A DNA stretch of 25,688 nt from a virus. Taxonomy: Duplodnaviria > Heunggongvirae > Uroviricota > Caudoviricetes. Both the position numbers and the translations under genes were made by a program. This document shows positions 4,828-24,404 of this stretch, piece by piece (within the stretch, counting starts at the first letter, position 1; every line of letters starts with the position of its first letter). Where the stretch lies: IMG/VR virus record IMGVR_UViG_2925939204_000005. The stretch is one strand, 5' to 3'. The notes under the pieces were generated by a model that saw only the letters and a program-made list of their open reading frames with translations, was not told the origin of the DNA and did not search any database.

Positions 4828-5167
4828 ATTGATAACAGAGGGCGTTGCAGCGGGGTTGTCACTTAAGCGTATGGTCAACCTGACAACCCGGTGTCCTCAA
4901 CGGGGAAGGAATAACCCCGCCATACTTACCGCCGCGCCATTTCGCGGAGTGCCACAACCGGAAGCGCACGGTCGACGAAAATTTAACGACAGGCTATCTA
5001 TGAACCAGCTACCTCGCCGTGCGCTTTCGCGTTATGGTCTGACTTTTCATGGAAATATCCTTTCAGTAAACTGTCAGTGCCGGATGCTCACCCGTGTCCG
5101 GCGCACGCACTCCACCTCACCCGTGGAGAACTCCTTAATTACCAACCTTAGCTTCGTTGGTTAGCTA

Positions 5168-5386
5168 TTAACGCGGGTATGTAATCATTCTGGCAATGCT
5201 TAATGCCGCTGCTTTTTCCAGCCTGGTGATATCCTGCTCCAGAGCGGACAGATTTTCAGCCTGCTTAGCCCTGGCTTCATTGGCCCATTTCAGATCCTGC
5301 GCTGCATTAATTTTCTGGTGCATCCACTCATAAAGTTCATCATCGGTATAGTCTGGCGCGATGATGACGGGTTCTCGTTTCTGCAT
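5168..5386 (-). CDS. ydfC: YdfC-like small protein (72 aa) of the dicB operon
   Basis: ORF 5168..5386 (MQKREPVIIAPDYTDDELYEWM...); size and position between ydfB and dicF as in Qin. Confidence 0.75.
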   Translation of the reverse strand: MQKREPVIIAPDYTDDELYEWMHQKINAAQDLKWANEARAKQAENLSALEQDITRLEKAAALSIARMITYPR

Positions 5387-8080: not shown

Positions 8081-8503
8081 GTGGCAAAAGTTTTTACACA
8101 AGAAGAGCGGGAAAAAATTAAAGGGCAGGTTGTTGAACTCGTACGCCGGAGTGGGCGTGAGACGTTACGGCAACTGGAAGTCAAGACAGGTGCGACAAGA
8201 TATCTGATGAGCGTTCTCGCAAGAGAGCTGGTTGCCAGCGGCGATGTATACAACTCTGGTTACGGGTTATTCCCGTCTGAACAGGCGCGTAAGGACTGGC
8301 AAAATGCCCGTAAAAAGCTCTCAAGGGCAAAGCTGAAGGAACCATCTGCGGTTGATCCGGACCTTATCTGGTCATTACCTGACGGAGAAATACGTCGCTA
8401 CGACAGGCGTCAGAACATAATCTGTCGCGAGTGCCGGAAGAGTGAAGTTATGCAGCGCATACTAGCATTCTATCAGGGAAATGCTCGATATTTATTGAAG
8501 TGA
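8081..8503 (+). CDS. Hypothetical protein (140 aa)
   Basis: GTG start at 8081 preceded by AGGAGGG SD. Basic protein with a CxxC motif (CRECRK); no helicase-loader signature, so it is not an obvious P/DnaC analogue. Confidence 0.5.
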   Translation: MAKVFTQEEREKIKGQVVELVRRSGRETLRQLEVKTGATRYLMSVLARELVASGDVYNSGYGLFPSEQARKDWQNARKKLSRAKLKEPSAVDPDLIWSLPDGEIRRYDRRQNIICRECRKSEVMQRILAFYQGNARYLLK

Positions 8504-8755
8504 TGAGATTAAAGTTTATTAGTTCAGATATTGATTGGCTCTTTTGTGGAGTAGGGTAGAGTTAGTGTGTTTGTCTGCTTGGTGCCAGCAGCGGATATGT
8601 TTAACAACAGAAAGCATTCAGCATGGTTAGTGGGTTTGCAAAGTGGATTAGGATTTGAGAAACTTTGATGAAGTTGTAAAGCTTGTTTCTATAAAAATAG
8701 AAATTTAACTAATAGTTAAACACACCTCCAGCTTCATTGAAAAGGATTATTAGCT

Positions 8756-9655
8756 ATGATTGATCCACTTATTAGAAACTTACAGAGTGATATTGCACTA
8801 CTCCAGCTTTATATCGCGCAACGCAAACAGGCAGGCTTTCATGACATGGAAAGAATAATTGAGTCATTGACCATCTTTATGTTTCGCGCGCTGAAAATGG
8901 GTGAACTGGTAAACATGAATCAGATTAAAGTTAATTTTCCCGCCATTGATTTAGCTGATAATAAAAACATGATAGCAGTTCAAGTTACTACGAATGCAAG
9001 TCCAGCAAAAATTAAAAAAACTATCGAATCTTTTGAGAAAATAAATGAAATAGGAGAGAGTCTGAAAGATAAATACTCTACTTTATATATTTTTGGTTTT
9101 TGTAAAGCCTCAAGATACCTAACTCCAAGTTATTGTAAAATAATCGACCCCAGCTATTTCGTGAATGAACTTTGCGATAAAGCAGATGAAGATATGGTCC
9201 AGGATATGATTGACGCCATTCGACGCCATCATGATTATACATCATTACATCCATGGAGTGATAAAGATTCACTCGAAATTATACTCAATATTATTAATCG
9301 CAATGCAATAAAACATCGGATGAGTTGCGAAGGCAGTCTGTCTGATATGCTCACTGGTTTAAAAGAAATTAATGAAGTAATTACAAAAGGAACAATTCAA
9401 CGTAAGCAACGTTCAAAATCGATATCTGACTTCAAAGATCAAAGCATGGTGAAATTTATGAGAGGTGTAATGGATGATTTGTCTGTTATTCAAGCCATAG
9501 TGAACAAATCTAAAGTTAACCAAGGTGATATGGTTTATATAAGCCATGAAGATATGATTAATATTGATAAATTAAAAGCTAAAATAGCAAGTGATTCATC
9601 AGAGATTGCAAGGCTAAATAATATTGATATAACACTAAATGTTGTTGATTTATAA
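8756..9655 (+). CDS. SMEK-domain-like protein (299 aa), candidate defence/abortive-infection cargo
   Basis: AT-rich gene with AAGGA SD. N-terminal region (NFPAIDLADNKNMIAVQVTTNASPAKIKKTIESF) matches my recollection of the SMEK domain (PAID-LAD ... IA-QVT). C-terminal about 170 aa have no recognised motif. Confidence 0.6.
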   Translation: MIDPLIRNLQSDIALLQLYIAQRKQAGFHDMERIIESLTIFMFRALKMGELVNMNQIKVNFPAIDLADNKNMIAVQVTTNASPAKIKKTIESFEKINEIGESLKDKYSTLYIFGFCKASRYLTPSYCKIIDPSYFVNELCDKADEDMVQDMIDAIRRHHDYTSLHPWSDKDSLEIILNIINRNAIKHRMSCEGSLSDMLTGLKEINEVITKGTIQRKQRSKSISDFKDQSMVKFMRGVMDDLSVIQAIVNKSKVNQGDMVYISHEDMINIDKLKAKIASDSSEIARLNNIDITLNVVDL

Positions 9656-9969
9656 TTGTCGATTTAGCAAAACAGAGAATGCTTTGAAAGTTTCACCGAG
9701 AAATATTTATTGTGAACCTCCTTATTGTTTATCGACTTTTACTCTCCGCTCATTGCAGTACTGTCGGAGAAGGCTACTATGTACAAGAAGCAGCTAACAT
9801 AAGCGAGCATCACTATTGATATTAGGAAGAGTATATAAAAACTTCATGCTGAACCTTACAAAAGTAGGTAAACCGGCAATGGCCTAAGTGGCAGGGTCAT
9901 GTTGATCCGGCAATGCCGAGCTAATAATTAACAAGCAAATCACTCTTTCTAATAATTTGTTGAAATAAA

Positions 9970-10629
9970 CTAAATATGTATATGTTTACCAACAACCACA
10001 TATGAACTACCTGCTTTGCTCCATGATTTTATTATTTCTAAATTATTATCTGAGCATATTTTACTTACAGTATCCACATCTAATAAACCATAGTAGAAAG
10101 CATTACGAGAGTTTTGGTATATATACCCATGCAAATGTTTAATACCGCTCTCGTACCTCTTGAAATAAGAACTTTTGTATTGATTGACAATCAGTGCTTC
10201 ACCATCACTCTTTAATAATTCTCTAATCGCACTGAGGACTTTGTGAATTGTGGATTCACATGGAATTGCGGAAAGCACGTTTGCGCAAAGTATGAAATCA
10301 TAATGATTTGTTATTTTATCTATATTTTCATAAGAAACAATATTAGCATTCTTATAGTTATTTATCACGTAATCTGGAATCGTGGTTTGTACACCTCTGA
10401 TAATTTGCACTCTTTCTAGTTGTCTTCTGGAATCTAAAAATGTCACAGTTTCAAATTTATTTACTAATTGTTCTGAATATCTAAGTTTTCCACATCCAAA
10501 ATCAAGGGCATTGCCATTTTTATTAGTGCTTTCAATCTGTTTACAGAGATAGTTAGATGGCATAGTGTGCGGTTTCGCTGCATTTTCTGAACGTATGTTT
10601 ATTCCATTTATTTTGTAATTCAAAATCAA
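9970..10629 (-). CDS. Class I SAM-dependent methyltransferase (about 217 aa)
   Basis: Motif I LDFGCGKLRY, acidic residue ending beta-2 (VTFLDS) and motif-II-like DFILCANVL. The ORF-track start at 10629 is TTG; a TTG at 10623 with GAGG 6 nt upstream is an alternative. The gene starts 6 nt after the upstream membrane-protein stop, suggesting an operon. Confidence 0.65.
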   Translation of the reverse strand: MILNYKINGINIRSENAAKPHTMPSNYLCKQIESTNKNGNALDFGCGKLRYSEQLVNKFETVTFLDSRRQLERVQIIRGVQTTIPDYVINNYKNANIVSYENIDKITNHYDFILCANVLSAIPCESTIHKVLSAIRELLKSDGEALIVNQYKSSYFKRYESGIKHLHGYIYQNSRNAFYYGLLDVDTVSKICSDNNLEIIKSWSKAGSSYVVVGKHIHI

Positions 10630-10635
10630 CCTCGT

Positions 10636-11331
10636 TTAAAAAATATTGTTATTGTTAAAGAATTCTTTTATTTTGCTATCAGGTATTTGTCTTACTTGGC
10701 TTTCTGTTCTTGGTTTAACTGATGCTATGAAAATAAGGAAGTCAAATGCGACAAGAGAAATAATCCACAACCAAAGATTAATTAAAGAGCCAGTAACAGA
10801 GAATATATTTGTTAATTTGGCGATACTTATTATTAAAATAGTAACAAATGCGATTACTGTATGTTCAAAGAAAACCCAAAAGTAATAAACTTTGTTCCAG
10901 AAAAGTTCAACGTAATGTTTGTCTTTTAACTCTTTAACTTCTGGGTAATACAGTTTACTCATTACCTTGTGAGATTCATCAGTAGTTAATTTTCTCGTAA
11001 CGCCTGCAATTTTTGCTAATGGTTTAATAATTAAATGACTATCCCACATCTTCCTTATTCCAATAATTTTTGCTACATTATTATGTAGATCTAAAGCTCC
11101 ACTAATTACTGACCAAAAAACTGAAGATGCAATTGGTAATATGCCAAAGGTTAATATCCATTTAATAAATTCCTCGTAGTCTTTAACGGGGGGGATATAC
11201 TTGGCATTAATGCCAACCAATGGCATGTAGCCATAAATGACTAATGATAGGTAAAATATAAATGTAGTAATAAAAGTCGCCTTATGGAGCATAGGCAACA
11301 TTTCATTATAACTCTTTGGTGGTTCTAACAT
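10636..11331 (-). CDS. Integral membrane protein (about 231 aa, about 4 predicted TM helices), unknown function
   Basis: ATG at 11331 with GGAG SD (the ORF-track start at 11343 is TTG). Hydrophobic stretches at about residues 20-45, 65-85, 150-180 and 190-215; AT-rich codon usage; first gene of a two-gene operon with the methyltransferase. Confidence 0.6.
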   Translation of the reverse strand: MLEPPKSYNEMLPMLHKATFITTFIFYLSLVIYGYMPLVGINAKYIPPVKDYEEFIKWILTFGILPIASSVFWSVISGALDLHNNVAKIIGIRKMWDSHLIIKPLAKIAGVTRKLTTDESHKVMSKLYYPEVKELKDKHYVELFWNKVYYFWVFFEHTVIAFVTILIISIAKLTNIFSVTGSLINLWLWIISLVAFDFLIFIASVKPRTESQVRQIPDSKIKEFFNNNNIF

Positions 11332-12073
11332 TTTACTCTCCAAACACTCAAAAAAAAGCTAATCTTCTATAATAACGAAATTCAGCTGGCACAATTAAAG
11401 ATTAATTGCCACCAATTTCTTGATTTTATAATTTTATCTAAATGTTTTTGATTAATCTAGTCCTAAAAGAAACCTACTGCATAAATATTTATGCTGATGA
11501 CCCACTCCCTGTTCGTTAACACATAGCAACGTTAGTAATGCATCCTAAGTGATCAATATTTTTGCTAGCTTCATCTGCTCGCTCAAAGGGAACTATAATG
11601 TTGGCTTGCGTGTGACTTGGCATGTTTAAAGAAGTGCTGGTGGTGACTGGTTGCTGTTTTCCATTTCCACAGAACAAAATCATAGAAACTATACCCAGTA
11701 GTTGTATTGAATCACTGACGAGACAGCCTCATATTTATCAGGACTGGTGTACGTCCAATACAGGAGGTTGTGGTGCTGGTTCTCAAATGTGCGCTGGCTA
11801 TTGCTGCTGTAATGGCAATTTATTGTCTTGCTGTTGTTCTTATGGATCACCTTTCTGATTGATTTCATATTGGCGAGGTAACGGTAGTTAAGTAGAATTG
11901 CTGCGGGTGCTTGAGGCTATCTGCCTCGGGCATCAACACCAAAGGCAGATAGAGAAAAGCCCCAGTTAACATTACGCGTCCGGCAAGACGCTTAACATTA
12001 ATCTGAGGCCATATCTATGCTCTACACACGTAGGTTAGCCTCTTACGTGCCGAAAGGCAAGGAGAAGCAGGCT

Positions 12074-12229
12074 ATGAAGCAGCAAAAGGCGATGCTAATC
12101 GCCCTGATCGTCATCTGTTTAACCGTCATAGTGACGGCACTGGTAACGAGGAAAGACCTCTGCGAGGTACGAATCCGAATCGGCCAGACGGAGGTCGCTG
12201 TCTTCACAGCTTACGAACCTGAGGAGTAA
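12074..12229 (+). CDS. hok: Hok-family type I toxin (51 aa; HokD/RelF-like)
   Basis: MKQQKAMLIALIVICLTVIVTALVTRKDLCEVRIRIGQTEVAVFTAYEPEE: single TM helix followed by the conserved Hok periplasmic tail; AAGGAGAAG SD upstream. The ORF-track start at 12017 is an in-frame upstream extension. Confidence 0.85.
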   Translation: MKQQKAMLIALIVICLTVIVTALVTRKDLCEVRIRIGQTEVAVFTAYEPEE

Positions 12230-12298
12230 GAGACCCGGCGAGGGAGAAATCCCTCGCCACCTCTGATGTGGCAGGCATCCTCAACGCACCCGCACTTA

Positions 12299-12329
12299 AC
12301 CCGCTTCGGCGGGTTTTTGTTTTTATTTT
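12299..12329 (+). terminator. Rho-independent terminator downstream of hok
   Basis: AACCCGCTTCGGCGGGTTTTTGTTTTTATTTT: GC-rich hairpin (CCCGC/GCGGG) with a TTCG loop followed by a T-run. Confidence 0.65.
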
Positions 12330-22671: not shown

Positions 22672-23259
22672 ATTCGTAATGATTACCTAAATACGTTATT
22701 CTTTTGTTCAAAAAGTGATTTTGCTATAGGTAGGGAGTATGTTCTTGGATTAAGAATAAAAATCGCCATGAAAGAGCTTCATGGCGAGTACATAAACGTA
22801 CAAAATATGATGAAAGTAGAGTGGCGTAAGCCACTATATTAAGATATGACAATAGCGAAGAAAAGTAAATAACATTTTATGGGCGTTTAATTGTCAATTA
22901 TAAAAACTAGAGTGCCCGATATTGTTTATCTTGCTTTAAAATAATGTACTCAAACCAAATTTTTGAGCTAAAAGCTCAAATAATATAAATGCAATGATAA
23001 TGTTTAATAAGACAATTAGCTTGCTTTGTATTTTCATTTCGGAATACTGTTAAGTAACTTTGATGACACTAACAATAGATCGGAATTTTCTTAGAGTCAA
23101 TGGTCACTGTTTTTGCTTGCAAAGCAAATGTTTTTGGTGGTTATAAGTTTTCTTAATATAGTCACCTATGCAACTTGTTCCTTGTGGAGATTAAAGGTTA
23201 AAATTTAATGCGAAGATGGAATTATAATATATTTTTTTATAATTAATTTAACCTTAACA

Positions 23260-23358
23260 TCGTTGCTGGCGGCATGGAAGAAATATCGGGTCTTGCTGAT
23301 GTCGTGTTGGCACTTCCTTAGTGCGGTTATCGAATGGCCAGCTGTACCTGTGGGGTAA
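23260..23358 (+). pseudogene. Fossil tfa 3' end (C-terminal about 33 codons only)
   Basis: Aligns by eye to the 3' end of tfa (22566..22671) and translates to [32 protein letters not shown]-stop. No upstream tfa body; AT-rich flanks. Confidence 0.6.
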
Positions 23359-24014
23359 AAACTTTATATGGGTGCTATTTTTATAATAGCTGGTAAAAAC
23401 TGGCCGAACTGAAATTCACTGTTGATAAAAAAGATGTGTTTGAGTGTATGTCATTGTTTTCTTAATGGAATCCACTAGAATGCAGCGAATTTAAGAAGGT
23501 GGGTTTTTATTGGAATATAAACTACAATAATGCTCAACTCGTTCGTAGAATTGTTTTTTCTTATTTTTTGGAATGCTAACCATTATATGCATTATGGGGG
23601 CGATACTTCCTGATAATTTACATGATGCATACATTGAAGCAATAAATTCAATATCATTGTCATCAAAGTTAAAGCTTTCTCCGTCCATTTCAATTCCTTA
23701 TGTGTTTGGCACAACTGATGCTGTATCCCATGAGAATTTATGCAAGTTGTTATGTTTGATTTGATATTGCAATGATAATTGTAGCTAATTGTTTTCAATT
23801 GAGTGAAAGTTTATTTCGAGTGATTAAGTCGAAAAAAAAGATTTCTCACGGTTAGTAAGCGTATTAGGTTAGTATTCAGATATGAATGGTATTAATGACT
23901 AAATTTTCAATCATATATGGATTTTTATGCTGATGAAGATGTTTTATTTGGCGATTCGTCAAGCATCTTCACTTAAGTAATCGTATATTTTAAGAGTGCA
24001 AAAGAGAAAGGGAC

Positions 24015-24115
24015 AACGTTGCTCGCACTCTGGATTAAATATAGGGTGTTGTTAAACTGCGTTGATACATAATTGTACCGGATATTGAGTGGTCTGAAGT
24101 CCCAGTCATTAAGTA
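24015..24115 (+). pseudogene. Second fossil tfa 3' end (frameshifted)
   Basis: Nucleotide similarity to the tfa 3' end; translates in two frames to TLLALWIKYRVLLNCVDT-stop and VPDIEWSEVPVIK-stop. Confidence 0.55.
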
Positions 24116-24404
24116 ATCGTTTCGTGATATGCCGCAGAAACGTTGTATGCAATAACGTTCTGCGGTTGGCTGATGCACTTTCGAGAGTGTATTGAATAAT
24201 TTCAATCCGTTATTGTTTTTACGCGTAACACCATGAAAAGACTGCTTATCTGTTGGGGTATTTTTTGGGGCATATATGGGACAGAAATAGGCCACAGATA
24301 GATAGTAAGATCGAACTCAGGATGCTTTTGAAAAAATGTAACTATCTGAAAAAACCTAGAAAGCGCCAAGGAAACCACAGAATGAGAAAAAACATCTGTG
24401 AATT

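Follow-up and report, generated by a model that had tools for sequence, protein, structure and literature searches.

A mobile membrane protein and methyltransferase gene pair in a Qin-like Escherichia coli prophage as a candidate anti-phage module

We analysed a 25,688-nucleotide (nt) stretch of viral DNA (IMG/VR record IMGVR_UViG_2925939204_000005; hereafter, the window) and focused on two adjacent genes at 9970-11331 that encode a four-transmembrane (4-TM) protein and a small class I S-adenosylmethionine (SAM)-dependent methyltransferase. The window is a Qin-like cryptic lambdoid prophage of E. coli with its integration site beside ynfA/rspAB (Qin-like at ynfA/rspB). Judged by homology, the pair is a copy of ymfE-ymfD, the uncharacterised genes of prophage e14 in K-12 (b1137/b1138). 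With modest confidence, we read it as a self-contained, mobile two-gene anti-phage module of the abortive-infection or exclusion type that is carried as prophage cargo. The observed basis for this reading is the ymfED homology, obligate pairing across phyla, mobility, a defence-island and cargo-hotspot context, and fusions of the membrane protein to TIR domains.

Identity and architecture of the gene pair

The first clue to the name was a methyltransferase match called ymfD. Against the e14 ymfD-ymfE genes of K-12, the two-gene block has 68.9% nucleotide identity over 99% of its length (blastn), and BLASTP gives 68% identity for YmfD (4e-113) and 60% for YmfE (2e-108). Both prophages carry ymfE followed by ymfD on the same strand, with a gap of 0 nt in K-12. 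This identity had been missed by the first-pass annotation of the window, which considered the pairing unusual for a prophage. We found a ymfDE-type pair in 433 of 5426 complete E. coli genomes: the e14 type accounts for 283 of these, the window allele for 145 and an allele with 80-90% identity for 5. Because the genes belong to a known, uncharacterised family, the window itself adds only a new allele. Azidothymidine (AZT) induces e14 genes, including ymfDE, in a LexA-dependent manner (PMC11228462). The pair in the window is laid out as follows (aa, amino acids; ORF, open reading frame).

10636..11331, minus strand: YmfE-like inner-membrane protein, 231 aa; ORF with ATG at 11331; 60% identity to K-12 YmfE
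11338..11341, minus strand: GGAG Shine-Dalgarno sequence of the membrane-protein gene, 6 nt upstream of the ATG; sequence read directly
10630..10635, minus strand: intergenic spacer ACGAGG with the methyltransferase Shine-Dalgarno sequence (GAGG, 10633-10630); sequence read directly
9970..10623, minus strand: YmfD-like class I SAM-dependent methyltransferase, 217 aa; RefSeq start TTG 10623, alternative TTG 10629

Both ORFs, motif I and the Pfam matches bear out the first-pass description of a 4-TM protein tightly coupled to a small class I methyltransferase, with the strand corrected: both genes lie on the minus strand. The junction reads TAA-ACGAGG-TTGATTTTG, with the TAA stop of the membrane-protein gene at 10638-10636. 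GAGG falls in the spacer after this stop, not inside the upstream gene as had been proposed. The proposed 6-nt gap holds if translation starts at TTG 10629, but becomes 12 nt with the RefSeq start at TTG 10623, which places the Shine-Dalgarno sequence at normal spacing. An internal ATG at 10563 was rejected as the methyltransferase start since the 20 residues preceding it are conserved in distant homologues. It is the conservation of this N-terminal YKIN..IR.ENAAKP that identifies an upstream TTG as the real start. The spacer arrangement is compatible with translational coupling of the two genes. Promoter and terminator scans around the pair gave no score above chance, and no hairpin was found between the methyltransferase gene and the convergent gene for a SMEK_N-domain protein (SMEK; described below). 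Rfam had no match within the pair; its only matches, sok and a sub-threshold isrK, lie outside it.

Hydropathy analysis resolves four hydrophobic segments in the YmfE-like protein (~18-40, 56-80, 146-175 and 183-205), an architecture that is kept across the YmfE family. The central loop (81-146) is 65 aa long, close to the ~70-aa cytoplasmic loop noted at first pass, and probably faces the cytoplasm because its 12 Lys/Arg residues satisfy the positive-inside rule. The predicted topology comprises four TM helices, with the N-terminus, C-terminus and central loop all cytoplasmic. An AlphaFold2 (AF2) model is all-helical, with a predicted local distance difference test (pLDDT) score of 86.9. Five residues (Y8, H83, R93, Y129 and W152) hardly vary across the family and three more (D97, D137 and E156) are ≥85% conserved; the predicted topology puts all eight on the cytoplasmic side. 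No Pfam, NCBIfam, PADLOC or PHROG family matched the protein, no solved-structure or viral fold relative was found, and Pfam detected no TIR domain in it.

The methyltransferase has motif I (LDFGCGKLRY; D41-x-GCGKLRY), a family-invariant acidic residue at the end of beta-2 (F62-x-D64-S65) and, in its AF2 model, a Rossmann-type fold of alternating beta and alpha elements around a seven-stranded sheet, which together place it in class I. NAAKP, F-x-DS, C-x-NV-x-SAIP and NQ..SSYFK..E-x-G are likewise invariant in the family. The sequence argues for a catalytically intact protein, and because the SAM-binding motifs are invariant across the family, it is probably a functional enzyme. Pfam matches are to Methyltransf_12 (35 bits, gathering cut-off 30), Methyltransf_23 (34.2 bits, cut-off 27) and, weakly, TehB (24.4 bits, cut-off 20.4). 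The AF2 model (pLDDT 88.6) matches Trm9, NNMT, DnrK and others in Foldseek at a probability of 1.00 and a TM-score of ~0.6. These neighbours (Trm9, MfnG, NNMT, DnrK and DhpI) are generic class I enzymes only, at 10-18% identity, and a sequence search of the PDB gave only E values of ~1e-3. We set aside NNMT as a link to TIR chemistry (identity 14-18%, TM-score ~0.6), since many unrelated methyltransferases score alike. A housekeeping role, which the first-pass annotation had proposed to check by profile search, was rejected: NCBIfam models for TehB, BioC, TrmB, NodS and others scored 12-33 bits against cut-offs of 132-303. A regular expression run over the 217 aa found no [DNS]PP[YFW] motif IV, as had been noted at first pass. 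At this length the protein has no target-recognition or extra domain, and neither N6_Mtase, MethyltransfD12 nor a similar Pfam family matched. Motif IV and a target-recognition domain, the marks of DNA amino-methyltransferases, are both lacking.

Conservation, mobility and genomic context

Scanning one genome per species with a methyltransferase profile yielded 53 loci from about ten phyla. A YmfE profile identified an adjacent YmfE-like ORF on the same strand in 52 of them, answering the first-pass question of whether the homologues co-occur elsewhere; in the exception (L047), the methyltransferase gene lies within ~60 nt of the contig end. The two genes overlap or are ≤14 nt apart in 49 loci, and both orders occur (ymfE first in 39, ymfD first in 13). 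Pairs were found in Gamma- and Deltaproteobacteria, Planctomycetota, Acidobacteriota, Bacillota, Verrucomicrobia, Nitrospirota, Ignavibacteria, Acidimicrobiia and Gemmatimonadales. An exhaustive YmfE-profile search returned 222 cluster representatives, and every membrane-protein-seeded contig examined carried the methyltransferase, sometimes in decayed form. Pairwise identities of the two proteins are correlated (r=0.79, Mantel 0/999). A third conserved gene was not found, with the biggest neighbour cluster present in 4 of ~55 loci.

Individual loci depart from this pattern in several ways. The methyltransferase gene is frameshifted in L007 (5728-6445) and cut to 85 aa in L099 (8811-9068), with the YmfE-like gene intact in both; in L046 (1025-1390) it is the YmfE-like gene that is truncated. 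In several strains, the ymfE-like gene is interrupted by an insertion of ~1.1-1.4 kb (for example, L068 4999-6905 and L078 5967-7988), annotated as ISApl1 in two genomes. Such insertions could be a sign that the membrane protein is costly to carry. A Neptuniibacter locus (L005) has a very hydrophobic 96-aa ORF just upstream of the pair (4879-5169) that is not conserved elsewhere. Three contigs of 2.4-3.0 kb filed as 'Candidatus Scatousia', Haemophilus sp. and Streptomyces sp. (L011, L012 and L013) probably reflect contamination or mis-binning, because they carry the E. coli-type cassette at 86-100% identity.

The pair has a lower G+C content (GC) than its flanks in 58 of 59 loci. It is present on 28 prophage-type contigs in IMG/VR, and plasmids gave three matches only. 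Among 132 neighbours, the Pfam families seen most often are those of resolvases, recombinases and integrases. Within two genes of the pair, unrelated genomes carry Olokun OloAB, Lamassu LmuB, Hachiman HamAB and Gabija GajAB, as well as PDC-S67, RmrA (two loci) and a second Hachiman locus. One locus places the pair beside Lamassu-type LmuB_C, CTD7, MC3, two serine recombinases and an HSDR_N_2 protein (type I-like), and one beside an island of PLD-helicase-DUF3427, NUDIX and RNase_T genes. In e14, the neighbour is Lit.

Three relatives join a YmfE-like domain to a C-terminal TIR domain: P0276/L006 (395 aa), L061 (390 aa) and L060 (847 aa). In the longest (L060, 671-3214), the 4-TM YmfE-like domain and TIR are followed by a C-terminal Lcl_C (lectin-like) domain. 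The fused TIR domains match Pfam TIR_2 (2e-20 to 4e-21), PADLOC PDC-S66 (~6e-59) and ThsB (1e-35 to 8e-39), and the methyltransferase gene is still adjacent to each fusion. The C-terminal position of the TIR domain fits the predicted topology, because the YmfE C-terminus is predicted to be cytoplasmic. The fusions came from two separate searches, which does not by itself imply that they arose independently. A profile search for other domains fused to YmfE found none besides TIR.

In the window, the pair occupies an island of 30-36% GC (8500-11500) within a backbone of ~48%. The island corresponds to a cassette that includes one further gene.

8596..11568, strand not assigned: cargo cassette of SMEK, ymfD-like and ymfE-like genes; ~2.9 kb, GC 30-36%, in the DUF977-hokD slot
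8756..9655, plus strand: SMEK_N-domain protein, 299 aa; Pfam SMEK_N 2e-22, NCBIfam 1e-30, PADLOC Aga_REase-PNTD 1e-20

Homology between the window and a sister prophage carrying a RelA/SpoT-domain gene stops at 8595 and restarts at 11569. Strain EC28, which has another lambdoid backbone, shares only 8584-11497 with the window, at 83% identity. Because of the break points in the sister prophage and because the EC28 backbone shares only the cassette, we conclude that SMEK and the pair move as a 2.9-kb unit. The slot between the DUF977 gene and hokD (window 8504-11900) is a variable cargo hotspot in Qin-like prophages. In other E. coli strains it holds a RelA/SpoT-domain protein, an Sll1717-family P-loop ATPase, QueH, DUF7380, DUF7167, DUF1627 together with an ATPase, or a SAM methyltransferase that has decayed.

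SMEK combines a predicted restriction-endonuclease-fold nuclease domain with a C-terminal half that has no known domain, and its gene is a separate transcription unit convergent with the methyltransferase gene. SMEK is counted among the nuclease domains of short prokaryotic Argonaute (short-pAgo) partner proteins (PMC10810196). Enterobacterial alleles of 81-100% identity have SMEK next to the pair, and the linkage is confined to Enterobacterales. None of the 48 non-enterobacterial loci has SMEK, and neither do e14 and four other enterobacterial alleles. We regard it as a linked neighbour and not a core component because of its absence from e14 and the non-enterobacterial loci.

Next to the cassette is a hokD/sok type I toxin-antitoxin locus (11905-12229, with the Hok ORF ending at 12229); the Rfam sok match scores 114 bits at 11905-12079. 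An isrK-like Rfam match at 12238-12319 is sub-threshold (25.7 bits against a cut-off of 50). GC is low (31-39%) in one more stretch, the ~1.7 kb at the right end of the prophage (22672-24404) that precede a ydfJ-like major facilitator superfamily (MFS) transporter gene; the longest ORF there is 86 aa.

Weighing the defence reading against alternatives

Anti-phage defence is the best-supported option because of the defence neighbours, the cargo hotspot and the TIR fusions. Under this reading, both proteins would be translated from one mRNA, and the methyltransferase would work at the membrane together with YmfE, which would act as effector or scaffold. The methyltransferase may methylate YmfE or a small ligand and keep the membrane protein inactive; alternatively, it may make or remove a signal. 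Infection would turn YmfE into an active, probably oligomeric, state that harms membrane function. In the TIR-fused relatives, the active state would turn on a cytoplasmic TIR NADase or signal generator, the TIR domain serving as an added cytoplasmic output in some lineages.

A broader proposal is tentative and, in our judgement, less than probable: YmfE/YmfD pairs would constitute a phylum-spanning, unrecognised immune system, with a copy in K-12, in which SAM-dependent methylation controls, or is monitored by, a 4-TM effector. In one variant, methylation of YmfE or its ligand would be constitutive, and infection, for example through phage SAM-degrading enzymes, would free the effector. TIR-fused variants would tie the same switch to NAD+ chemistry.

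Several points weigh against a role in defence. Sequenced phage genomes gave no match to the pair by megablast or tblastn. A known defence system lies within two genes in ~9 of 46 non-redundant loci, a raw count made without comparison to the genomic background, and several loci sit among housekeeping genes. Neither protein matches a system-specific model in PADLOC-DB v2.0.0 (2023), and the distant pairs behave likewise; the methyltransferase has a sole match there, to mad2 (1e-4), and the membrane protein has none. TIR fusions occur in 3 of ~60 loci. Searching the literature by gene name, accession and sequence motif turned up no functional assignment for ymfD or ymfE. Growth is normal in a ymfD knockout, and YmfD is not the mRNA N6-methyladenosine (m6A) methyltransferase (PMC12096079). 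The only reported phenotype of a ymfD deletion is lower early biofilm (PMC3105296). Finally, the defence role is something that we infer, as are the effector identity, substrate, mechanism and roles of both proteins.

That biofilm phenotype (PMC3105296) would suit a different function, in which the pair is a moron for envelope or small-molecule modification. As in a TehA/TehB-style operon, the methyltransferase would be held at the membrane by YmfE, and its substrate would be a small molecule such as a lipid, quinone or toxic anion. The host would gain stress resistance or a biofilm or surface change instead of immunity. The methyltransferase belongs to the small-molecule-type Methyltransf_11/12/23 group, matches TehB weakly (24.4 bits) and has mostly small-molecule O-/N-methyltransferases as structural neighbours (MfnG, NNMT, DnrK and DhpI). 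The conserved polar cluster of YmfE could be a substrate or active site, and some loci lie among metabolic genes. However, the NCBIfam equivalogs for TehB, BioC, NodS and others score far under their cut-offs, and YmfE, which matches no Pfam family, is not related to TehA. A metabolic role would not readily account for the TIR fusions or for the defence systems that recur next to the pair, and the patchy, low-GC, mobile distribution also speaks against it. We consider this explanation unlikely.

Rather more unlikely is a toxin-antitoxin or addiction pair, in which YmfD would neutralise the toxic action of YmfE in the membrane and the two would stabilise the prophage or island without specific sensing of phage. 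Tight translational coupling and strict co-inheritance would be expected of such a pair, the cassette slot holds hokD/sok here, insertion sequences break ymfE in several strains, and one partner is frameshifted or lost in the decayed copies L007, L046 and L099. Yet two of these copies, L007 and L099, retain an intact ymfE beside a decayed methyltransferase gene, which a lethal toxin would not tolerate, and an antitoxin that simply binds its toxin has no need of an invariant SAM-binding site. Addiction of this kind overlaps abortive-infection defence rather than excluding it.

Restriction-modification-like immunity, with the methyltransferase modifying host DNA or RNA against the neighbouring SMEK nuclease, is highly improbable: SMEK is a nuclease-type domain (PMC10810196), stays beside the pair in enterobacterial alleles within a cassette that has moved whole between prophage backbones, and the methyltransferase weakly resembles mad2 of MADS, but SMEK is absent from e14, four enterobacterial alleles and 48 of 48 non-enterobacterial loci and is convergently transcribed as a separate unit, the methyltransferase lacks [DNS]PP[YFW] and a target-recognition domain, and its universal partner is a membrane protein. 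The first-pass suggestion of an immunity/modification pair falls with it, the constant methyltransferase partner being a membrane protein and not a nuclease. Its suggestion of an undescribed defence system that includes SMEK survives in part: defence has the best comparative support, but the trio with SMEK is limited to the enterobacterial 2.9-kb cassette.

In the literature searched, we came across neither the obligate pairing across phyla nor the defence-island setting, the TIR fusions or the mobile SMEK cassette, and the DefensePredictor paper and its supplements gave no match. Together, the pairing, context, fusions and cassette mark ymfED out as a concrete candidate for a defence system of a new type, and one that is easy to test. 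It can be tested directly in E. coli, for which the genes, knockouts and phage panels exist. If the defence reading is true, the long-standing K-12 genes ymfD and ymfE would gain a role, and the known bacterial immune systems would come to include a new combination of components, in which a SAM methyltransferase of the small-molecule type has a 4-TM protein as its dedicated partner. The TIR-fused relatives would then tie the pair to NAD-based immunity. Both the 2.9-kb cassette and the DUF977-hokD hotspot could be mined for more accessory genes.

Comparison with known systems

The closest counterpart is ymfD/ymfE of e14, which has the same gene order, strand and tight junction and is also low-GC prophage cargo. 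The e14 pair lies beside the exclusion gene Lit, whereas the window pair lies beside SMEK. The two pairs also differ in allele, in the prophage that carries them (Qin-like at ynfA/rspB for the window) and in the slot that they occupy.

TehA/TehB likewise joins a membrane protein and a class I SAM methyltransferase in one operon. However, the TehB equivalog models score far below their cut-offs against the window methyltransferase (NF008405, 28 bits against 218; NF008992, 29 bits against 303), and TehA, a 10-TM anion-channel-type protein, is unrelated to YmfE. The Thoeris models ThsB/PDC-S66 match the TIR domain of the three fused relatives strongly, but the window protein has no TIR domain and no ThsA-like partner, and a 4-TM N-terminal domain with a methyltransferase is not part of Thoeris. 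Mad2 of MADS has weak similarity in the methyltransferase domain (1e-4 for the window protein, 9e-11 for a Bacillota homologue). Mad2 is 492 aa long, only its methyltransferase core aligns, and the other MADS genes are absent from the window.

Lambda RexA/RexB and Kiwa KwaA/KwaB are two-component abortive-infection systems with a 4-TM membrane partner. San Juan SjdA/SjdB is a validated two-gene abortive-infection system in which sjdB has four predicted TM domains and sjdA has no stated domain (PMC12366544); our comparison with it is by description only. Like the window pair, RexA/RexB, Kiwa and San Juan each combine a small 4-TM protein with one cytoplasmic partner and are carried as prophage or defence-island cargo. 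Unlike theirs, the partner in the window pair is a SAM methyltransferase, and the likeness is one of architecture and setting only.

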